Assembly: GCA_965198005.1 (NCBI GenBank)
Contig: CBDAOI010000004.1
Coordinates: 1,504,001-1,568,000 of the forward strand
Source of the DNA: Spirochaetia bacterium
GTDB lineage: Bacteria; Spirochaetota; Spirochaetia; SZUA-6; Bin103
Direction of reading: 5' to 3'
Length of the DNA: 64,000 nucleotides
The position numbers and the translations under genes were made by a program. This document shows positions 28,040 through 38,409 of the stretch, piece after piece (within the stretch, counting starts at the first letter, position 1; every line of letters starts with the position of its first letter). The notes below the pieces were generated by a model, which saw only the letters and a program-made list of their open reading frames with translations, searched no databases and was not told where the DNA came from.

Positions 28040-31000
28040 CTACATCAGCGCCATACACTCGTCGAGGAACTCGCTGATGTTCCGGGTGAGCCGCGCCCAC
28101 CCAAGTACTACGCGCGCCTGCCGCTTGAGCGCGTCCGCATCGACCGGGCCGCTGGCTGAGAGCCTCCGCAGCAACGCGCCGATTTCGTCAGGGGGAAGCT
28201 CATCGAGCTCTCGGGGGCCACGCTCGCGGGGGAATCACCTCGGGGCTCTCCGGGCTGCGTAGCACGAGTTGCGCTTGTCCCGTGCGACCGAGTGGATTGG
28301 CGACCGCCACGACGCCCGTTCGCACCGCCGCGGCGCAGGCTCGGTTGAGGGCTCGCCGCGCCAGTGCGGTAAGCCGGCGACTGCCGGAAGCGCGATCGAT
28401 CAAGCGGTAGGCGCGGATCGCGACCACCGGCCCCTCGTAGCGAGCTACTTCGGCCAGCAGAGCGATGAGTTCACCCTGTCTCGCAGTGCGCGGATCGGGA
28501 ACGTGGCCGGTCGATGCCCACTCCCCGTAGGGCGCACGTGCGGCCACGGGAGCGGCACTCTTTGATAGTTGCCCGGCGCGCGGAATCCCTTGGCGGACAG
28601 CCGGCCGGTCGACGGTCTGCAGTATGGGCTGATCGGGGCTGATGCCTTCGCGTTCAGGTGACCGCTCAGGCACAGGGGGTGGGCCAGGTCGCGGCGGATC
28701 ATTCCCCGCAACGGCGGCTTGGTCCGATGGATGAGCGTTTCCACCCGTCACGGGCGGTTGCCCGGTGGGTCGTTTCGCGTGACGCTCGCCGTCGTGCGTG
28801 GCCGACTCTCGTTGCCCCTGAGCGCTCAGCGGATCGTGCACGACAAGTTCTGCGATTGGCTCGGACGGCCGTGACGGCGGCATCTCGGCTCGCCGTTTCT
28901 GCCTGCTACGGCGATCGTCGTCCTCGGCTGCGGGGAAGATTCCGCGATCGTTGAGCGCGTTCCAGAGACCCGCGAGCGCCTCGTCGGAGTCGAGCCGGAA
29001 CGCACTTTCGCGAACCCGCCAGAACGTCCAGCCGCAGCGTTCCAGATCGCGCTGGCGGCCAGCGTCCCTTTCATATTGGTCCGCCCCGTGCCAGGCATCG
29101 CCATCGCACTCGACCGCCACGCTGCCGTCCATGCCCTGCACGACAAGATCGATGCGGTAGACTCGTCGAGGTGTTTGCGTGCGTTGCGACGGTGCTGTGG
29201 CGCGTACTTGCCGGTACCCCTCCCGATGGAACGCACCGACTTCGACCAAGCTACCAAGTGCTGTCGCTGGTTCTCCGTCATCCGCGTGAAGCAGTGCGTC
29301 CACGCCTTTTCAGCCGCGAGTCGTTCCAGCGTGCGAGCGATGTCTTGCTTCGTGTGATCGAGTTCGAGGCGGTGCTGCTCCTCCGCACCCGGCTTGATCA
29401 GACGCTTCACCCAAGCGTACGCCCGCGACCAGTTCCAGGCGCGCCCGATCTCACCGGCCCGCTCATCCCAGACAGAGGCAGCAAACGTCCCCTTGATCTC
29501 ATCAGCCAGAACCGGCGCTCCGGTTGTCATCCGGTGCAGCAACTCGCGCTTGCGGTCCACTTGCGCCGCGAGTTCCACGTTGTCTGCCGCTCGCTGCAGC
29601 GCGCTCGCGTATTTCCGCGCGTCGCGATCCACGATAGCGGCGCGTATCTCCTCCGAGGTGGGGTCGAGCGGCCAGAGTGTTCGCTGCCCGAGTGTTTGCT
29701 GCGCCTTCAACCGTTCGCAAGCCGATTCGATCTCACCTTGCGCGGCAGCGTATCGGTACGTCGTCTCCACGGCGGCCACCGACTCGCCGTAGCGCCGCAG
29801 TGATGCCGGGTCAGACCAGTCCGGCTCGGGGCTTCCCGGCGTGCGCTCCACGATTGCTGCCAGGTCGCGCTTCAGAATCAGGGCCGCGAGTGCATCTTCA
29901 ATGGGCGCGCACAGATCCTGGAGTTCGGTCGCCAGATCGGTGAAGGTACTCGCCCTGAAGTCGTGATAGCGCCCCCAGCGCTCGCGCAGACGGAGGATTT
30001 CGAGTTCGCCGTCGACCCGCCTCACCAAGTCGTCCACGGCGTCTGCCACCGTGCACGGCCGACCGCCTATGCGCAAGTCGCGAATGTAGCGGGCACGCTT
30101 CACTACCTTGGGGCGGAGTGGACCGAAGCCCCAGCGTCCACCGGCCCCAAGGTGGTCGAGCAGGGCGTTGGCGTCGGCGCGCAGCGTCTGCAGGTCTGCT
30201 GTCGGCGGCGGAGTGATCGGGTTGGCGTCGAGCGCGCGAGCGGACCCGCCCAGTGACTTCGCGGCGTTCAGGGTGTCCTCGTGCAACTGCCGCCACGTAC
30301 GCTCCAAGCCGCCGAGAATCTCCTTCGTTGCCGTTTCCGCCCAGGCCAGCGGTTGTCGCTCCATCTGTTCGATCAGCCGGAGGAGCTTCTCCAGTCCGCC
30401 CGCGAGATCACGGCGGTCGCACTCGACCATCTGTTCCAACGCGTCGTACTCGCCGCGATGCCTGATTGGCGCGTTGATTTCGTGGGCCGCACGTGCTTCG
30501 GTCTCACTTCGTACGGCTCGTTCGAACTCCTCAGGAGCAGGCAAACCGCCGAGGTCGACGCTCACCCATCCGTTCGCTTCCCAATCCCGGAGGTGCTCGT
30601 TCCTGAACAGCGAAACCAGTTCGGCGAACTGATCTGCAGAGAGCGGTGGATCGATGTCTTCCGGGGTGTCGTCGGGAATCCAGGAGAGCGACTCCCGCTC
30701 GTCGCGCAGCGTTTCGGCGATGCGGGCAAGGTCCCGTTGTAGCCAAACTTCGCCTCGTGACGGGTCTCCCGTTCCCCAATTACGCGCAGGTCCTGAAGTA
30801 CCTTGGCTTCATGTCTTCGGGCGCGATCCAGGTCGCCGTCGAGGCGCGCAATTGTTGCGTGGCTCTCCTTCGCATTCCAGGTGTTGTGCCGGGTCGTGAT
30901 CCCCTGAACGGACCCCTCCATGGCATCCAGGGCGTCGCGGTCGTCGCCAAGCAGGACGACCGCCAGCGGGGCGAGGTCCGGTGCGTGCTCGAGGATCATG

Positions 31001-32165
31001 TGGCGCAGCACCTTGAGCGCCCGCACCGTGTGGCTGGTCACGAGCACCCGCCGGCCGTTGGCGAGCGCGTGGCAGATCAGGTTGACGATGGTGTGCGACT
31101 TGCCGGTGCCGGGCGGCCCCTGGACCAACACGCCCTGGTTGGTGGCCAGCCGTTGGATGATGCCGCGTTGCGCCTCGTTCGCGGGGAGCGGGAAGTAGGT
31201 TTCTTCCGGATCGGCACCGTTGCCGCTGTTGCTCATCATGCCGGCGGGAGGGCCATCCTCCGAGATGCTGATGAAGCGCGCCACGCCCTCGGGCACGGGA
31301 TCCCCTTTCTCGAGTTTCTCGATGATCCTCTGGAACGCGCGGATGAACGAGCGCTCGGTTCTGCGCCGCAGAATGAGTGCGGGCGCGAACTGAACCACGG
31401 GCGCCGGGCCGGGCCGTCGCGGCTTGAGGGACGGGCGGTACTCGCCTTCCGCCGACGCCGAATGCGCCCAGCTCTTGAGCAGACCGTCCAGCGGACCGGG
31501 CGCCCACAGGGAATCGCCAATCTGCTGCACCGTCTCCTCAATGGCACGAAGCTCCTGCGGGTCGGGACGGTGCTGCGGGTCCAACATGTCCAGTTCCAGG
31601 GTGGGACGGGCGCCTTCCCCCGCCGGCGTGACGGTCAGCGTTCCGTGCTGCGGATCAAGACTCACGGCGGCCTGGGCGGCCACCAAGTGTCGCTGCACTG
31701 CGTAGCTGCCGGGAACGTTCCAGCTCAGCAGGCCCAGCCCGAAGACGACTTCGAACCGCTCACCCACGCTTTGCTGACGTTGGTACATCAAGAAGAGCTC
31801 CAGGTACACTTTGCGGACGGTCCGCTCACGCCGGTCGCGCTCGGCCCATGGCCACCAATGGTTCTCGATCCAGGCATCCCACGCCTGCTGAACCTCGGGA
31901 TGGTCCTCCAGTTCCAGCGGGGGATGTTCGTCGGACTGGCCGCGAATGGTCGGCCGACCTCGTCGGTGCCATCGCCTCCGGGGGCATCGGAACCGCAGCG
32001 CCTCCACGCGATGCAGTCACAGCCGCTCTCACGCGGAACGTCGGCGGCCCAGATGACCTGCCCCTCCTGCTCGTAGCGGGAGATGTCGCGGACCGTGGTC
32101 GTACGGAGTTGCGTGAACTCGCTGAGGAAACGGTACAGGGCTACGGCCCCTTCGCGGTCAGTCAC
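28040..32165 (-). pseudogene. Large SF1 (DNA2/NAM7-like) helicase with Vsr/DUF559-like endonuclease and DUF3320-like tail; several frameshifts and a large deletion
   Basis: GGAGG-GTG start at 32165; FPLPANEAQ, VQGPPGTGKSHTIVNL, RVLVTSHT; YRIDLVV..VAVECDGDAWHG..RQRDLERCGWTFWRVRES; EVARYEGPV; LGWARLT near the end. Confidence 0.85.
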
Positions 32166-32499
32166 GGAGGCACCTCCAGAAAGCGAGTCTAATCTAACGA
32201 ACGGCGTCGTGAATCTCCATATCGTGGCTGTGGTCCGCGGCGCCGGCGGCAGGCGGGCGATCCCCAAATGAGGGCGAGATCAGGCCCGCCCGGCACTCTG
32301 CCGTCCGACAGCAGAAGCGTCCGGTGCGTCGCATCGCCGCCAAACGGGAGATCAATTCACCAGCTCGACGAACACCTCGAACGTCTCCCGGCATTCGCCG
32401 GCGACGGCAGTGATCCGATAGGCTCCGCCCATTGGGACTGCGATACCGGCATTGCCCGATTCTCTCACCGCAACGCCGTCCAGAAACCAGGCGAGATCG

Positions 32500-32850
32500 G
32501 GGTGGTTCCACTGACGGCGACATCCACCCCGAGGCCAGCATCGGCGAGCGGTTCTTCATCGACCACGGCACGGGAGTGGTGATCGGCGAGACCTGCGATC
32601 GGGCGCAACGTGCGGGGATCTATCAGGGCGCCACGCTCGGGGCCAAGAGCCGCCCGCTGGACCGTCACGGCAGCCGGTGAAGGGGATACCGCGCCACCCG
32701 ATCGTGGAAGACAGCGTGATCATCTACTCGGGGGCGACCATCCTGGGGCGCACGCGGCTCGGCCGGGGTTCGATCATCGGCGCCAACACGTGGGCGACGC
32801 CGGACGTGGAGCCGGAATACAGCCTCTATCCGTCGGACGCCATGGTAGCA
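32500..32850 (+). pseudogene. cysE: Serine O-acetyltransferase remnant
   Basis: [55 protein letters not shown] across frames. Confidence 0.85.
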
Positions 32851-32889
32851 TGAGCCCGCTGCCAAGGATTCTGGCATGTCTCTCGATCG

Positions 32890-33251
32890 TATCAATAGGG
32901 TGTAAGTCTCGAATTGAGCGATTAGAGGGGGTCTGGTGCGACTCCAGGACAGGTTGGACGCGCGACGGTGACAAAGTGTCACGCGCCGGGAGGTAGCGGC
33001 TCCCAGCACCGGTACTGCGGCTGTCCCGGAGGCAGCGGTCGGCGTGATGGCAGGCGGGGGAAATGGGTGCGAGGTTTGCCCCGGTTTGGGCCGTTTGGGG
33101 TAGGGGGTAGCAAAGCCTCCCAGTCGATAGCACAATGGCTATGACTGGGAGGTCAACTATGGATAGGGTGTAGGTCTCGTATTGAGTGAATCAGAGGGGC
33201 AAGATCTGGTTTGGAGGACGATTGCAGCGCAGGGGTGACAAAGTGTCACGC
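32890..33251 (+). repeat. Diverged ~95-bp direct repeat (32890-32984 and 33158-33251)
   Basis: TATnnATAGGGTGTA(A/G)GTCTCG(A/T)ATTGAG..AGAGGGG, then GGTGACAAAGTGTCACGC at conserved spacing (73 vs 72 bp). Confidence 0.85.
33116..33152. other. Strong stem-loop
   Basis: CCTCCCAGTC-G-ATAGC-acaatg-GCTAT-GACTGGGAGG. Confidence 0.8.
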
Positions 33252-33543
33252 AGGGCGGTGCGAGCGCGTGCGACCGCTGACCTCCTCGGGCGCGCCCGAG
33301 CGGGCGCGGGGTGCTCTCCAAAAAAAATCGAAAAATCGCTGTTGAGCGGCGTTTGGAGCTTGACACGGTTTTCACAGCTCGCCGCGGCCCCGCGCCAACC
33401 CACGCCACAATCTCCCGCACAAGCGGCGTAGCCTGCGCTGGAGCGGCCGCCAACCCAATCCGGCCCCGAAACTCCAAAATCGCCGAACCAAGCCCGTCAC
33501 GGCCGCGTACGGCCCCGTCCAAAACCGGGTGTACCATACAGCC

Positions 33544-35223
33544 ATGGAAACCGCCATGGAACAATCAGCATCCCGCACGGCGCCGCCACCGGCCCCGGCG
33601 CCGGCCGCCCCGCTCGACCTGGATCAGCTCGGCGACCGCATCGCCGAACTCTCCGCCCGCATCCAGGCCGCCACCTACGACCTGCTCTGTGACCTACGCG
33701 ACTTCGACCGCCGCCACGGCTGGGAAGGCTTCCGCTCCTGCGCCCACTGGCTCAACTGGCGCACCGGCCTCGACCTCGGCGCCGCGCGCGAGAAGCTGCG
33801 CGTGGCCGCCGCCCTGGCCGACCTCAACCACGTGAGCGCCGCCATGGCCTGCGGCGTGCTGTCCTATTCGAAGGTACGGGCGCTTTCTCGGGTGGCGACC
33901 CCGCTCACCGAGGCGCGGCTGCTGGCGGTGGCGTGCGGCGCGACCGCCGAGCAGGTGGAGCGGCTGGTGCGCGGCTGGCGGCGGGTGGACCGGGAGGCGG
34001 CGGCGGCCGGCGACGATGGCGCGCAGGTGCGCCTGGCGCGGCGCGGGTTGAGCCTGCGGGTGGACGAAGACGGGACGGTGGTGCTGCGCGGGCGGTTGCT
34101 GCCGGAGGTGGGGGCGGTGGTGCTGCGGGCGCTGGAGGCGGCGCTGGAGCAGGTGCCGGCGGCGGCGGCGGACGGCACGGAGTGCACTGCCTCGCAACGG
34201 CGCGCGGATGCGCTGGGGGTGGTGGCGGAGAGCGCGCTGGCCGGCAAGCTGGACCCGGGCGCGGCCGGTGACCGCTACCAGGTGACGGTGCACGTGGACG
34301 CGGCGGCGTTGGCCGCCGGTGAGACTGCCCCCGAGACTGCCTCCGACGCGCCGGAGATTTCCGCGGAAACGTGCGCCGGTGCTCCGGCCGCGGCAGCGAG
34401 CGCCCCGGCTGCGTCGGCAGCCGGCTGCGCGGCCGCTGACGCCGGCGCAGTTTCAGCGGAAACGCGGGGCACCGGCCGGACTGCGCCACCGGCGATGCCG
34501 GCAGCACCGTGCGCCGCCGGTGAGACTGCCGCCCAGCCGGTCGCACCGCCGGTCACCGCTCCCGTCGCGGACGCCCCTGAGCACACCGCCGCCGGCGCGC
34601 AGGTCCCCGCACCGGTGGCGCCGGCGCCGGCAGCCGACTCCACCCCCGCCGCCGGCGCGGCGGTCATCGAACAGGCGAATGGCATTCACCTCGCTGCGAC
34701 CGCAGCCCGCCGCATCGCCTGCGACGCCGGCCGCGTGCTGGTGACCCACGCTCCCGACGGCGCAGTCCTGGAGGTCGGGCGCAGAACGCGCACGGTGCCG
34801 ACTCCGTTGCGCCGCGCGCTGGAGGTCAGAGACCACCATCAGTGTCAGTTCCCCGGCTGCCAGCTCCGCCACTGCGACGCGCATCACGTCGTGCACTGGG
34901 CGGACGGCGGGGCGACGCGGCTCGAGAATCTCGTTTTGTGCTGTCGCTACCACCACCGGGCGGTGCACGAGGAGGGGTTTCAGGTGGTCTCTGACGGGGA
35001 TGGGCAGTTTGTGTTCCGGCGGCCGGATGGTACGCCGCTGCCGGCGGTGCCGGTGGCGCCGCGTTGGGAGGGAGCGCCGCTGGAGCCGACCGAGGCGCGG
35101 CTACGGCAGGCGGGGATCACGATCGGCCCGCATACGGCGACGCCGGAGTGGTACGGGGAGTCGCTCGACCTGGCGGCGTCGCTCGACGTGCTTTGGGAAC
35201 CGCCGCCGGCCGGCGGTTCATGA
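33544..35223 (+). CDS. DUF222 (13E12-repeat-like) HNH endonuclease
   Basis: GFRSCAHWLNWRTG..AREKLRVA, LSYSKVRALSR, RRIACDA, RRALEVRD..CQFPGC..DAHHVVHWADGGATRLENLVLCCRYHHRAVHE; start at ATG 33544 or GTG 33529. Confidence 0.92.
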   Translation: METAMEQSASRTAPPPAPAPAAPLDLDQLGDRIAELSARIQAATYDLLCDLRDFDRRHGWEGFRSCAHWLNWRTGLDLGAAREKLRVAAALADLNHVSAAMACGVLSYSKVRALSRVATPLTEARLLAVACGATAEQVERLVRGWRRVDREAAAAGDDGAQVRLARRGLSLRVDEDGTVVLRGRLLPEVGAVVLRALEAALEQVPAAAADGTECTASQRRADALGVVAESALAGKLDPGAAGDRYQVTVHVDAAALAAGETAPETASDAPEISAETCAGAPAAAASAPAASAAGCAAADAGAVSAETRGTGRTAPPAMPAAPCAAGETAAQPVAPPVTAPVADAPEHTAAGAQVPAPVAPAPAADSTPAAGAAVIEQANGIHLAATAARRIACDAGRVLVTHAPDGAVLEVGRRTRTVPTPLRRALEVRDHHQCQFPGCQLRHCDAHHVVHWADGGATRLENLVLCCRYHHRAVHEEGFQVVSDGDGQFVFRRPDGTPLPAVPVAPRWEGAPLEPTEARLRQAGITIGPHTATPEWYGESLDLAASLDVLWEPPPAGGS

Positions 35224-35347
35224 CGGCCGCGCCACCTGCCGGCGGGATGCGCCCGCGCATGGTCGAGCTGGCACACGGCCGTGCTGCCTTGACCGGTCAA
35301 TTTGAGACCTACGCCGTATCAATAGGCGCGTCGCTGATGGCACACGG

Positions 35348-35617
35348 TCATCGACGCTTCCGGATTGCAGACGGTGGACTGAAGGGCTCGATCCGGGGAT
35401 TGGAGTAAGGACCTTCCACTTGCCATCCCGAACCACTCCGAACCTTGGCCGCCGCGCTGTCCGCCACGAGGATCGTGAACAGGCCCTCGTCAGAGTCGAT
35501 CTCTACAACACCGAAGCTCTCGTCGAATTCCGCCGCGGTGAGTCCGTATCGAGAACGCACCGACGCTACGGTCGGCCGCTTCCCTTTCGCGCGAATTGTG
35601 AGCATTACTCCGCTCAT
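35348..35617 (-). CDS. Small hypothetical protein downstream of S8 peptidase
   Basis: Intact 89-aa ORF, ..FDESFGVVEID..GPYSNPRIEPF. Confidence 0.65.
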   Translation of the reverse strand: MSGVMLTIRAKGKRPTVASVRSRYGLTAAEFDESFGVVEIDSDEGLFTILVADSAAAKVRSGSGWQVEGPYSNPRIEPFSPPSAIRKRR

Positions 35618-35626
35618 GAATTCATC

Positions 35627-36560
35627 CTAACCACATGCGAACCGGTCGGCGATCCAGCAACCGTTCACGGTGCCCCATCCGTACTCGAAGTCGTAGCCGA
35701 TACCACCGGCTTCCTTGGCGCTCTTAGTGAGTATGTCCCGTACGGCCGCCGGGGATGTTTCGGGTCGGGACGGGTCGTACGGGAGCTTTGTACGCAGCGC
35801 CGCCACGACACCGGCCACGACAGGTGTGGCAGCCGATGTGCCCGCATCCGCCGCGTACACGCCGGAGCCCTTGAAGTGGGTGTATCCCGCGAGATCCGGC
35901 TTGCGCCGTGCCAGACGGCCCGGTCCGATGCTAGAGTATCCCACGCGGTTCCTGGTCACGTCGACACCGGCGACACACGTCACCTGGGGATGAGAGTTCG
36001 CGCCGTAAATCGTGTTCGCCGTGATGTTCTGGCATCGCGGATCGGGGCAGTCCGGGCCGCAGTTGCCCGCAGCAAACAGGATGTCGGCGCCCGCGCGTTC
36101 CAGGACTCCTACGATGCGATTGAACGGATGGTTCTGATTGTCGCTGTAGTTGCCGGGCAGTCGGCGTATACGCCGACCACGCTCTCGCTGGCCTTCACTT
36201 CCCTGTTGAACGCGGATTGCGCCTTGTCGGCAACGGACCCACGCAGGAGGTATGTCGCGTGTTTCGGGTCCAGGTCGGGTACGTATGTCGGCAACGGACC
36301 CACGCGTGTTTCGGGTCCAGGTCGGGTACGTAGCGTTCGCTCACGTCGAGCGAATTCGTCGGCGGTCCGATGGGCATGCGTGCGGGTACGTCAATCGGGG
36401 CGAACGTCGTGTCCCATTCAATCGCGCTCAGCGTGGGAGCCGCCTTGTCGTCGAGGCTGCGCTTCCCTGCGAATCCTGCCGTTCGACAAGCTTCGTGTAG
36501 TTCGTCGGAGTGTTTTGCTTCGACAATGACTTGAAATGGTCTATCGGACGCTTGACGCAC
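35627..36560 (-). pseudogene. S8 (subtilisin-like) serine peptidase, central part deleted or rearranged
   Basis: GADILFAAGNCG, ANSHPQVTCVAGVD, YSSIGPG..KPDL, GTSAATPVVAGVVA, YGWG. Confidence 0.82.
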
Positions 36561-36699
36561 CTCTCGCCTCCTTGAGCGGTCGTCGACCTCGTCTTTGTCA
36601 ATCGGCCCGCGGAATTTCGAGAGTTACATTGAGATGTATTGTGTCGCTTGTCAACGCCCCAGTGGGCGCAAACGCCGCCGGATGACGGTTGCTGGAGCG

Positions 36700-36870
36700 C
36701 ATCTCGGCGCCGGAGTGCCAACCGCGGGGCGTATGGTGGCTCCGCCATCGACGCCGAATTGCAGGCCGAGGGTGAGCGAGTCGGACAGCAGCGGGTGGCG
36801 AGGCTGATGCAGCAGGACCGGCAGCGAACGGGTCAGTCGCCGCGCTCGGCCAGCACCACAACGCGTGACG
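36700..36870 (+). mobile_element. IS3-family OrfB N-terminal remnant
   Basis: NRGAYGGSAIDAELQAEGERVGQQRVARLMQQ. Confidence 0.65.
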
Positions 36871-36956
36871 CGGTGTCTGAGCGACTGACCGCGCTGCGCA
36901 GGTTGGCCGGGATGATCACCTGGACGCCGCCGCCGTAGTAGTGCAGCGCCCGCTCG

Positions 36957-37274
36957 TTGGAGCGGATCCAGTCCTCACGTTGTTGCGTGGCGCTTGGTCT
37001 CCACATAGGTCAGTTCGCTGGCCCCGAGGATCGCCACGAACGTTTCCACCGGCTGCGCCGCGTTCAATACCCCTTGACGTTGACCAGATTGAAGGCCGAT
37101 CCTCTGTTGTCAGGGTTCACAGAAGAACAGATAGAGACGACTCTCTACCAGATGGAATTGGGCAATCTCGTCCGCTCTGAAAACATGGAGCGAGCGGTCG
37201 ACGGGAACGACAGGATTATCCAGATAGCAGAGTCTGGTATGCGTATAGTCGAGCGAGATTGTGTTCCTATGTGA
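36957..37274 (+). CDS. Hypothetical protein (winged-helix-like?)
   Basis: Lower-GC ORF with protein-like composition; family not recognised. Confidence 0.35.
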   Translation: MERIQSSRCCVALGLHIGQFAGPEDRHERFHRLRRVQYPLTLTRLKADPLLSGFTEEQIETTLYQMELGNLVRSENMERAVDGNDRIIQIAESGMRIVERDCVPM

Positions 37275-37280
37275 TCGTCC

Positions 37281-37590
37281 ATGCCGAGCCGCCTGCGCGA
37301 GGCGGTGATCAAGAATACCATGCCCGAGCATCTGGTCGGGCATGGGTCGCGCGACTCGACGGCGATCGAGGGGCGCGAGAAAGCGACGCCGAAACCGCCG
37401 TCTCGGGCCAAGCCCAGGCGCAAGCCGGGCGTCCGTGCAGGGGCGAGGAACGACCGAATGATGAGCCGACACGTCTACATCGGCAGCGGGAAATGACGCC
37501 GGCACAGAATGCTCGACGACCTGCCCCAGGCGTGTGATGTCGGCACCAATCGCAACGCCAAGAGATACCAGCAATCCTGGATCGGGCTGC
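37281..37590 (+). mobile_element. IS5/IS1182-like transposase remnant
   Basis: PSRLREAVIK..LVGHGSRDSTAIEGREK; LDDLPQACDVGTNRNAKRYQQSWIG. Confidence 0.6.
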
Positions 37591-37659
37591 CGGCTCGTTC
37601 GGACGGTGAGACTCACGACCGCTTCGGCGGTTACTCGGCCGCTCGGCGAGAGCGGCAAA

Positions 37660-38409
37660 TCAGTCGGACGCGGTCAGGACCTCGGTGTGATCGGCGAAGA
37701 TCGCGATGGTGTGCTCGAAGTGGGCGGAGGGCCGACCGTCGCTGGTGACCACGGTCCAGCCGTCGGACAGCACCTCGGTGTCGCCGGTGCCGAGGTTGAG
37801 CATCGGCTCGACCGCCAGCACCATGCCCGGCTTCAGGCGCGGGTTGTTGCCGCGGCCGGGAACGTTGGGAATCTGCGGCTCTTCGTGCACCGCGAACCCC
37901 AGCCCGTGGCCGCAGTACTGGCGCACCACGCCATACCCGGCGCGATGGGCGTGATTGAAAATGGCGCGTGAGACGTCCTTTACCCGGTTGCCGGCCACCG
38001 CCTGCTCGATGCCGCGCCACAGGCACTGCTCGGTCGTGTCCACCAGTTTGCGCAGCTCGGCCGAGATCGTCCCCACCGGCACGGTCAACGCGGCGTCACT
38101 GAAGTAACCGTCGATCTCGACCCCGAGGTCGAGGCCGACGATGTCGCCCTCCCGCAAGCGCCGGTTGCCCGGTATGCCGTGGATCACCGCGTCATTGATC
38201 GAGACGCAGATCGCGGCCGGATAGTCCATGTAGCCCAGGAACGCCGGTCGCGCGTTGCGGGCTGCGAGGTGGGCCGCCGCCAAGTCGTTGAGTTGACGCG
38301 CGCTTATGCCCACGGCGACGTGGGCGCGCAGCAGCATCAGGGTCTCCCGGAGAACGGTGGCCGTTTCTCGAATCCGGTCGATTTCGGCCGGGCTCTTCAG
38401 GCTCGTCAT
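37660..38409 (-). CDS. map: Type I methionine aminopeptidase
   Basis: CVSINDAVIHGIP, DLGV..GYFSDAA, YCGHGLG..HEEP, AVEPM, AHFEHT. Confidence 0.97.
   Translation of the reverse strand: MTSLKSPAEIDRIRETATVLRETLMLLRAHVAVGISARQLNDLAAAHLAARNARPAFLGYMDYPAAICVSINDAVIHGIPGNRRLREGDIVGLDLGVEIDGYFSDAALTVPVGTISAELRKLVDTTEQCLWRGIEQAVAGNRVKDVSRAIFNHAHRAGYGVVRQYCGHGLGFAVHEEPQIPNVPGRGNNPRLKPGMVLAVEPMLNLGTGDTEVLSDGWTVVTSDGRPSAHFEHTIAIFADHTEVLTASD

Follow-up and report, generated by a model that had tools for sequence, protein, structure and literature searches.

Why a single nuclease gene should lie between inverted arms and an exact direct repeat, and how such a gene could come to occupy many places in one genome, is the question raised by a locus in a Spirochaetia bacterium (assembly GCA_965198005.1, contig CBDAOI010000004.1, positions 1,504,001 to 1,568,000; this 64,000-nucleotide stretch is hereafter called the window). 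The gene encodes a protein with a DUF222 domain and an HNH zinc finger. A first-pass annotation, made from the letters alone, had taken the locus for one transposon-like element at 32888-35326 and had offered two explanations, namely a new class of mobile element driven by the DUF222-HNH protein or a non-autonomous element with terminal inverted repeats (TIRs) that had taken up the gene and is moved in trans. As described below, a known type of transposon accounts for the many copies of the gene in this genome. The gene is carried by a 2,151-base-pair (bp) element, termed A, which is very probably a mobile insertion cassette with the ends of ISKra4-family insertion sequences (ISs), relying on a transposase encoded elsewhere.

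Composite structure of the locus

The repeats that delimit the locus were readily recovered. The 12-bp sequence CGTATCAATAGG is found at 32888-32899 and 35315-35326 and thus matches the window twice, whereas 100 shuffled versions gave 0.01 matches on average and never as many as two, and the arms GGTGTAAGTCTCGAATTGA (32899-32917) and TCAATTTGAGACCTACGCC (35297-35315) pair at 16 of 19 positions. The 12-bp repeat resolves into an 8-bp target-site duplication, TATCAATA, the neighbouring C, the penultimate base of the right end, and the initial GG of the left end. The repeats noted in the first-pass annotation are thus real, but the sequence that they enclose is made of two parts. A repeat search paired 32890-32921 with 33158-33189 at 84% identity and found 33157-33185 to be complementary to the right arm (83% over 29 nucleotides, nt). 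The left arm therefore has a second copy inside the segment, which places the left end of A itself at 33166, and A extends from there to 35316. The preceding 268 bp, 32898-33165, derive from a second element, B. The stretch of about 650 nt that had been regarded as a structured non-coding leader accordingly contains the B fragment and a second left end; a known structured RNA in it is unsupported, as a search of 30000-38000 on both strands gave no Rfam match at E≤1.

The insertion is located in AT-rich intergenic DNA, 37 bp past the stop codon of a cysE-like gene. The flanks of A differ in the window, being TATGGATA on the left and TATCAATA on the right, whereas the flank of the left end of B is exactly that of the right end of A. 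The B fragment stops a few bases short of where the transposase open reading frame (ORF) of B would begin. The coordinates of all features are collected in Table 1.

Element A in its own genome

The genome that contains the window (G000; 4.89 Mb in four contigs, 66% G+C, 90% complete) was searched with the sequence 32860-35360. Sequence of A is present at about 22 loci, two of which have both tips, 12 one tip or a near-terminal piece and eight internal fragments. The remaining near-full copies with ends start at about 33166 and finish at about 35316 in window numbering, and none of them starts from 32898. A sharp left tip, GGGTGTAGGTCTCGTATTGA, is seen at seven loci, each with a different upstream flank, and a sharp right tip (reverse complement GGGCGTAGGTCTCAAATTGA) at seven loci with flanks that are likewise all different. 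Other copies thus pair these TIRs with DUF222-HNH in other surroundings, a point that the first-pass annotation had proposed to check. At C4:75269-77471 both tips are present and TAAACATT flanks the element on either side. The terminal base of the right tip is G in the window as opposed to C in six other right tips of A and in both right tips of B. The copies are mutually 82-95% identical. Intact DUF222-HNH ORFs are found in three of them, the window copy, C4:75633-77369 and C3:421821-423539, and of the others one copy is frameshifted and one degraded.

Several other sequences adjoin or resemble A. The 66 bp abutting the left tip at C3:423856 (C3:423857-423925) recur at three other places in the genome with 88-90% identity, starting from the exact junction, where the end of another repeated element seems to touch A. 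A third tip resembling the left end, GGGTGTAGGTCTCATATTGAGCGATTCTGA.., is located at C3:473147 (locus L102, about 3648, minus strand), approximately 145 nt before a multicopy gene that is a candidate Rpn/YhgA-type nuclease gene from a reading of its N-terminal sequence alone; the tip lies outside the repeat unit of that gene, the second copy of which begins 40 nt inside. Two further tip-like matches, C3:782429 and C4:1589104, fall within paralogous coding sequence and were taken as chance.

Seven copies or fragments of A share a single break site, which falls in the codons surrounding the invariant HNH asparagine (window equivalents 34922 and 34942). The breaks include those at C3:529382-532771 (L103 1883-5272), C4:817248-818301, C3:132165, C4:1899446, C4:1168152 and C4:115842. 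At C3:529382-532771 the break is occupied by an element of 3,390 bp that encodes three Xer-like tyrosine recombinases in tandem (recombinase-in-trio type) and lies between two inverted right-hand pieces of A. Another copy of this trio element, which is partial (99.7% identical over 1,040 nt), adjoins a different A break, and two or three other breaks hold only a 32-nt perfect palindrome with two TAATGCGG arms.

An autonomous ISKra4-family partner

The stretch 32898-33165 behaves as a separate repeat and is 98% identical to one other place in the genome, C4:2302333-2302601, which belongs to a 2,160-bp element, B, at C4:2300442-2302601. The tips of B are GGGTGTAAGTCTCGAATTGA on the left and, as the reverse complement of the right end, GGGTGTAAGTCTCAAATTGA, with TIRs that begin with GGG. 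Its ORF of 620 amino acids (aa) scores 214.4 bits on the NCBIfam model NF033572 'ISKra4 family transposase', above the curated cut-off of 205. A transposase gene between near-identical TIRs, which the first-pass annotation had proposed to look for, is thus present in the same genome. Since A itself retains only the last codons of such a gene, it is not an IS in its own right.

Element B splits a membrane-protein-like reading frame and has TTTCCTTT on both sides, and an uninterrupted paralogous target 5.5 kb away (C4:2307934-2308066) holds TTTCCTTT once; the comparison of the filled and the empty paralogue fixes the length of the duplication at 8 bp. One intact copy and seven fragments of B are found in the genome, and a tblastn search with its transposase returned no second full-length copy there, only fragments and distant family members with 27-40% identity.

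In a genome of the same genus, G001, contig C1 carries seven copies of a 486-bp segment (e.g. 5607335-5607820, L109) that is 83% identical to positions 193-684 of B. The segment corresponds to the 5′ part of the transposase gene with an N-terminal extension, and the rest of B is unmatched among the matches listed.

Origin of the ends of A

The ends of A are clearly related to those of B. The left tips match at 18 of 20 positions and the right tips differ at 2 of 20. On the left, the similarity extends over about 115 nt (74-75% over about 90 nt by BLAST) and includes an identical 15-nt palindrome, GTGACA-AAG-TGTCAC, and on the right the last 53-54 bp are 85% identical. The end of B encodes ..EIELAHGRAA followed by a stop codon, and A retains the matching codons ..VELAHGRAA with no gene ahead of them. 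This homology, together with the remnant of the transposase gene, indicates that A descends from an ISKra4-type element, or from a miniature inverted-repeat transposable element (MITE) derived from one, that had lost the transposase gene. Like other mobile insertion cassettes, A has inverted repeats of a known IS family at its two ends, and the duplication has the length of the cognate IS, 8 bp, at A (C4:75269/77471), at the composite and at B. All targets seen are AT-rich 8-mers.

A is thus a complete non-autonomous element of the B lineage. Of the left end it kept about 150 bp and of the right end about 56 bp, and the place of the transposase gene is taken by a DUF222-HNH unit that includes an upstream region of its own and finishes about 40 nt beyond the stop codon. 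The sequence 32898-35316 joins two related parts of DDE transposons, namely the first 268 bp of the autonomous B, counted from its left end, and the whole of A. From these features a probable history of the locus can be proposed. Immobile alone, A would be excised and inserted by a transposase of the ISKra4 type (Mutator-like DDE) acting in trans, supplied by the intact B or by a close unassembled relative, with 8-bp duplications arising at AT-rich targets, and the two parts would have co-transposed into the intergenic site. In this order of events, A would first have inserted into a copy of B at TATGGATA, just ahead of the transposase ORF, and the transposase would then have synapsed the left end of B with the right end of A and moved the block to TATCAATA in the window, leaving the second TATGGATA at the donor. 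The HNH nuclease would travel as a passenger; nothing in the data shows that it is needed for movement.

The arrangement of the duplication is of particular weight here. As TATCAATA brackets the left end of B and the right end of A, the pair appears to have moved as a unit, and one transposase would thus read both types of end; the composite is, we infer, the best evidence in the data for one enzyme handling both. A history without co-transposition, in which A inserted beside a dead B stub or a B element carrying A lost its right part, and in which the TATCAATA match is due to chance or is a leftover, would suit a genome full of broken mobile-element pieces and the unusual terminal G of the right tip in the window. 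It is nevertheless very unlikely, since the match at the outer tips is exact over 8 bp, in fact over 9 bp, and the enclosing 12-mer is expected 0.01 times in the window. A deletion by recombination between the right ends of A and B, moreover, should leave a B-type tip, whereas the tip in the window is A-type at all diagnostic positions and the exchange would have to fall within the last one or two bases.

Tips of the same lineage in distant bacteria

Similar tips were sought with a degenerate pattern in one genome per species, a sample from which the window's genome or a very near one was possibly left out, and 52 loci were found. An ISKra4-type transposase gene was detected by tblastn at 23 of these, 22 in Endozoicomonas and one in another gammaproteobacterial metagenome-assembled genome (MAG), with 48-57% identity to the transposase of B in the main group, and none of the 52 had a DUF222-HNH homologue at E≤1e-5. 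A further 19 loci (L050, L056 and L058 among them), from a 'Candidatus Entotheonella' MAG, hold a MITE of 191 bp in which a right end that still has the last-codon remnant of the transposase gene is joined to a left end that contains the palindrome; the 8-bp duplications are perfect in all six copies examined. A Spirochaetia MAG contains one 198-bp MITE of the same build (L075 4097-4294), with one base different in the palindrome and an 8-bp duplication, TTTCAATT, on its flanks. No ISKra4-type transposase match was found within the MITE-bearing loci of either MAG. Among Joint Genome Institute (JGI) metagenome contigs there were no matches to the exact 32-nt left tip of A or to a degenerate 26-nt left-end pattern.

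Because these MITEs and A share the tips of the lineage, the ISKra4 lineage seems regularly to yield non-autonomous derivatives that spread. The retention of the palindrome in A, B and the MITEs suggests that it is needed in cis.

The DUF222-HNH protein

The ORF starting from GTG at 33529 is 564 aa long, although ATG at 33544 is the more likely start. Its Pfam matches are PF02720 (DUF222; 68.1 bits, cut-off 24.4) and PF01844 (HNH; 22.4 bits, cut-off 21.4), with no other family, in agreement with the initial description of one intact DUF222-HNH gene. The HNH zinc-finger motif spans residues 439-480 (about 34843-34968), and residues C444, H452, H453, N467, C472, H475, H476 and H480 are invariant in an alignment of 48 sequences comprising the window protein and 47 homologues with 37-67% identity. 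With the DUF222 domain and the catalytic and zinc-binding residues of the HNH domain in place, the protein belongs to the DUF222-HNH nucleases of the REP13E12 type. It is probably still functional as a nuclease. An AlphaFold2 model has a mean predicted local distance difference test (pLDDT) score of 76.8; its confident parts are the helical DUF222 domain and the HNH domain, which are joined by an Ala/Pro-rich disordered linker at approximately residues 269-371 with pLDDT below 50. A Foldseek search of the model against the PDB gave no match at E≤0.001; weak local resemblance (E 0.2-1) was seen between the C-terminal part and the HNH domains of McrA and IscB (E about 0.5-1 for IscB), and between a helical stretch and the DNA-binding region of ParB/Noc. 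The ratio of non-synonymous to synonymous substitution rates (dN/dS) between the three intact ORFs is 0.38, 0.60 and 0.36, on 27-40 substitutions, and their differences in length are mostly due to insertions and deletions in the linker.

The family-library searches for a recombinase or transposase in A covered the DUF222-HNH ORF, on which Pfam found only the two domains named above and NCBIfam gave a lone weak IscB match (NF040563) in the HNH region, at 29 bits against a cut-off of 175. Together with the lack of any Rfam match in 30000-38000, this separates the protein from the IscB/TnpB guided nucleases, which have a RuvC domain and a guide RNA. A free-standing homing endonuclease likewise does not describe the gene, the copies of which are found in unrelated flanks with TIRs and duplications. 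Upstream of the gene, the conserved block around TTGACA may be its promoter, as inferred from the sequence, although a consensus promoter scan left TTGACA at 33360-33365 uncalled; inspection by eye revealed no LexA box before the gene.

These data also bear on whether A might be an autonomous element of a new class, in which the DUF222-HNH protein recognises the inverted ends and drives insertion in a homing- or transposase-like manner. Such a role would account for DUF222-HNH being the sole gene in A and for its three intact copies with dN/dS below 1. The protein family is moreover very large, with 24,436 clusters at 50% identity at E≤0.001 (2,305 at E≤1e-30), its genes are multicopy in many genomes and, without a known vehicle, in sister species, and no mechanism for its mobility or spread was found in the DUF222 literature consulted, including the accessible portions of PMC10589994 and PMC13157036. 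The proposal, which was one of the two made in the first-pass annotation, is still extremely unlikely, because the ends of A are ISKra4 ends that include a remnant of the transposase gene, because the same ends and the same 8-bp duplication belong both to B, the intact IS of this genome with its ISKra4 transposase, and to gene-less MITEs in other phyla, because the same ends also enclose ISKra4 transposase genes in an Endozoicomonas MAG, and because the DUF222-HNH units of sister species that were examined have no such ends. Staggered 8-bp duplications combined with TIRs are a hallmark of DDE transposition and not of HNH homing. The TIRs, in short, are those of a known IS family, an outcome that the first-pass annotation had itself listed as refuting, and the other early proposal, a gene taken up by a non-autonomous element and moved in trans, is the one that is supported, with its boundaries corrected and the left 268 bp reassigned to an IS fragment.

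The cargo unit in sister species

DNA searches of ten genomes of the same genus recovered the DUF222-HNH coding region at 73-86% identity, with many copies in the sister species G001, G003, G005 and G007, where the identity is 75-83%. Neither tip of A is covered by any same-genus DNA match among the matches listed, and a search with the 20-nt tip allowing up to five mismatches found no convincing match in six DUF222-HNH loci (G001, G003, G004, G005, G006 and G007). In G007 (seven copies at six loci) and G001 (seven loci) the gene forms repeat units of about 1.9-2.2 kb (L037-L049), which begin some tens of nucleotides before a conserved TTGACA block and finish 30-45 nt past the stop codon; the units examined have ragged ends, no inverted repeats and no ISKra4-like tips. 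When A is aligned with the G001 and G007 units, the surroundings of TTGACA are the best-conserved non-coding part. The homology of A to the upstream region of the congeners begins at approximately 33316-33320, where the junction is not sharply defined, and on the other side ends 35-40 nt past the stop codon, after which the sequence is B-like, the fit at this 3′ side being within about 10-20 nt. There is hence room in A for a few tens of nucleotides of other DNA at most. As the cargo of A is the congeners' unit without extra DNA, the gene was brought into ISKra4 ends as a unit, either by a mobility of its own or by illegitimate recombination, both of which are compatible with the data. The absence of extra DNA hints modestly at a unit that is itself mobile as a module.

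It is in this connection that a trans-mobilised cassette helped by its own passenger should be considered. The unit would have entered an ISKra4 MITE or IS by itself and would then make its carrier more persistent or more numerous. It might, for instance, cleave sites that are empty or that the element has left, which would then be refilled with the element during repair, by analogy with TnpB and IscB in IS200/IS605. A cargo that matches the native unit, with no additional host DNA detected on either flank, would fit such an origin, as would the ends of A, which at about 150 and 56 bp are together close in size to the lineage MITEs (191 and 198 bp), the excess of A loci over those of B (about 22 against one intact copy and seven fragments) and some constraint on the protein. 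We nevertheless regard the proposal as improbable, and the route by empty-site cutting as similarly doubtful: there is no direct evidence for a target of the nuclease, the left cargo junction is not sharply defined, and the protein, with an IscB score of 29 bits against 175 and no Rfam family in 30000-38000, has neither a RuvC domain nor a guide RNA. It is common, furthermore, for non-autonomous derivatives to be more numerous than their autonomous partners even when they provide no helper function.

Evidence bearing on trans-mobilisation

Mobilisation of A by a cognate transposase is thus suggested by the duplication shared between the left end of B and the right end of A and by the spread of MITEs with the same tips elsewhere. 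Several observations weigh against it. First, no empty allele was found for any A insertion, either in relatives or in contigs of public sequencing runs, where the first-pass annotation had proposed to look. In three congeners the cysE-like upstream gene is conserved at the corresponding loci and the right flank is absent from them, and in G001, G006 and G007 the flanks of the A copy at C4:75269 are far apart. Among the contigs of four public runs from three studies none joins 32897 to 35317, although contigs cannot reveal rare empty alleles; contigs of the runs X8 (35260-35480) and X2 (35286-35900) span the right-end junction, so that the site is filled there, and contigs of X1 and X3 reach only 27 letters into the left end, below the 31-letter rule. 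Second, the divergence among the A copies suggests that the family is not very young and may have lost activity. Third, both tips are kept at only two of the approximately 22 loci, and of these one has a simple matching duplication and the other is the composite. Fourth, A and B differ at two of 20 positions in each tip, and B may therefore not be the actual helper; a partner specific to A could be absent from the 90%-complete assembly. Finally, the dN/dS values weakly suggest some constraint on the DUF222-HNH protein, which would fit a useful passenger or a role in the success of the element.

Features of the locus and neighbouring sequence

Upstream of the insertion, the cysE-like hexapeptide acetyltransferase gene (window 32414-32853) is read in two frames, 32414-32680 and 32515-32853, which reflects either a frameshift or an assembly error. 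A scan of 32800-35450 for promoters and terminators gave zero terminators and one promoter-like site, which is on the minus strand, overlaps the left duplication and faces away from the element.

Table 1. Features of the composite locus, in window coordinates. From left to right the composite reads TATCAATA (32890-32897), left end of B (32898-33165), complete A (33166-35316) and TATCAATA (35317-35324).
Feature	Position	Strand	Basis
Left copy of the duplication, TATCAATA	32890-32897		Same 8 bp follow the right end
B left-end fragment, first 268 bp	32898-33165	+	98% identical to positions 1-269 of intact B (C4:2300442-2302601)
Subterminal palindrome GTGACA-AAG-TGTCAC in the B left end	32968-32982		Repeat search and alignment
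TATGGATA, final 8 bp of the B fragment, putative target of an earlier insertion of A	33158-33165		B homology stops at 33165, GGG tip of A from 33166
A left end; TIR tip GGGTGTAGGTCTCGTATTGA at 33166-33185, then B-like subterminal DNA; inner limit approximate	33166-33315	+	
Subterminal palindrome GTGACA-AAG-TGTCAC in the A left end	33235-33249		Repeat search and alignment
Region ahead of the cargo gene; TTGACA at 33360-33365; start approximate	33316-33528	+	Homologous to the region in sister species
DUF222-HNH ORF, 564 aa	33529-35223	+	Pfam
Break site of seven other A copies or fragments, HNH asparagine codons; unbroken in the window copy	34922-34942		Break points at 2063/2064 and 2074/2083 of the query
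A right end, B-like; in-frame remnants of the last transposase codons, ..ELAHGRAA; TIR tip at 35297-35316	35261-35316	+	85% identity to the end of B
Right copy of the duplication, TATCAATA	35317-35324		Read from the sequence

Comparison with known systems

The finding that a known mechanism resident in the genome explains the copies of the gene is a reason for caution, as a multicopy DUF222-HNH gene accompanied by repeats need not be a new kind of element. At the same time the locus offers a compact natural system for testing ISKra4 transposition and the effect of a selfish nuclease on the fate of its carrier, since the ends are defined (150 and 56 bp), the transposase of B is a candidate helper and the composite has hybrid ends. 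Should the unlikely case hold that the DUF222-HNH unit is a self-inserting module which entered an ISKra4 MITE, with the nuclease helping the cassette to persist or multiply, it would be a protein-only counterpart of TnpB/IscB retention and would give a first mechanistic handle on the spread of the DUF222-HNH/REP13E12 family.

The closest counterpart of A as a trans-mobilised cassette appears to be MIC231 of Bacillus cereus, a mobile insertion cassette moved in trans by the transposase of IS231A (Chen et al. 1999, as described in the available part of PMC3913671). Like MIC231, A has the inverted repeats of an IS family, no internal transposase gene, a passenger gene, duplications and a cognate transposase elsewhere in the genome. 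The two differ in that the ends of A belong to ISKra4 (Mutator-like DDE) rather than to IS231/IS4 and that trans-mobilisation of A is deduced from its sequence. The passenger of A is, moreover, itself a multicopy 'selfish' nuclease gene and not a metabolic or resistance gene.

The ISKra4 family itself consists of Mutator-like DDE transposases, p-MULT 4, according to the accessible text of Guerillot et al. 2014 (PMC3942029), in which four ISKra4 elements are described as carrying, next to the transposase, additional genes whose function is unknown, and some members as inserting upstream of sigma-A promoters, 13-17 bp from the junction with the inverted repeat. Element B resembles the ISKra4 ISs in its transposase above the NCBIfam cut-off, its TIRs starting from GGG and its 8-bp duplications, and A is unlike them in having lost the transposase wholly. 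No paper linking a DUF222 or HNH passenger to ISKra4 was found, in a search that did not extend to tables S1 and S2 of PMC3942029, which cover passenger genes and sites and might list an HNH gene.

The cargo of A, in turn, is like the REP13E12 or '13E12 repeat family' of Mycobacterium tuberculosis and other Actinobacteria in its N-terminal DUF222 domain, C-terminal HNH zinc finger and multiple copies (Gordon et al. 1999, cited in PMC10589994; see also PMC13157036). The available text of PMC10589994 and PMC13157036 contains no description of TIRs or target duplications for REP13E12. Every copy in the genome studied here, by contrast, lies inside ISKra4-type ends or their remnants. To our knowledge, REP13E12 is without such ends.

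Finally, the lineage MITEs, of 191 bp in Entotheonella and 198 bp in the Spirochaetia MAG, share with A the tips, the subterminal palindrome and the 8-bp duplications, as well as the last-codon remnant in the case of the Entotheonella MITE, and differ from it in being gene-less. In its overall build, A resembles a MITE of this kind whose two halves have come to enclose a gene unit of 1.95 kb.

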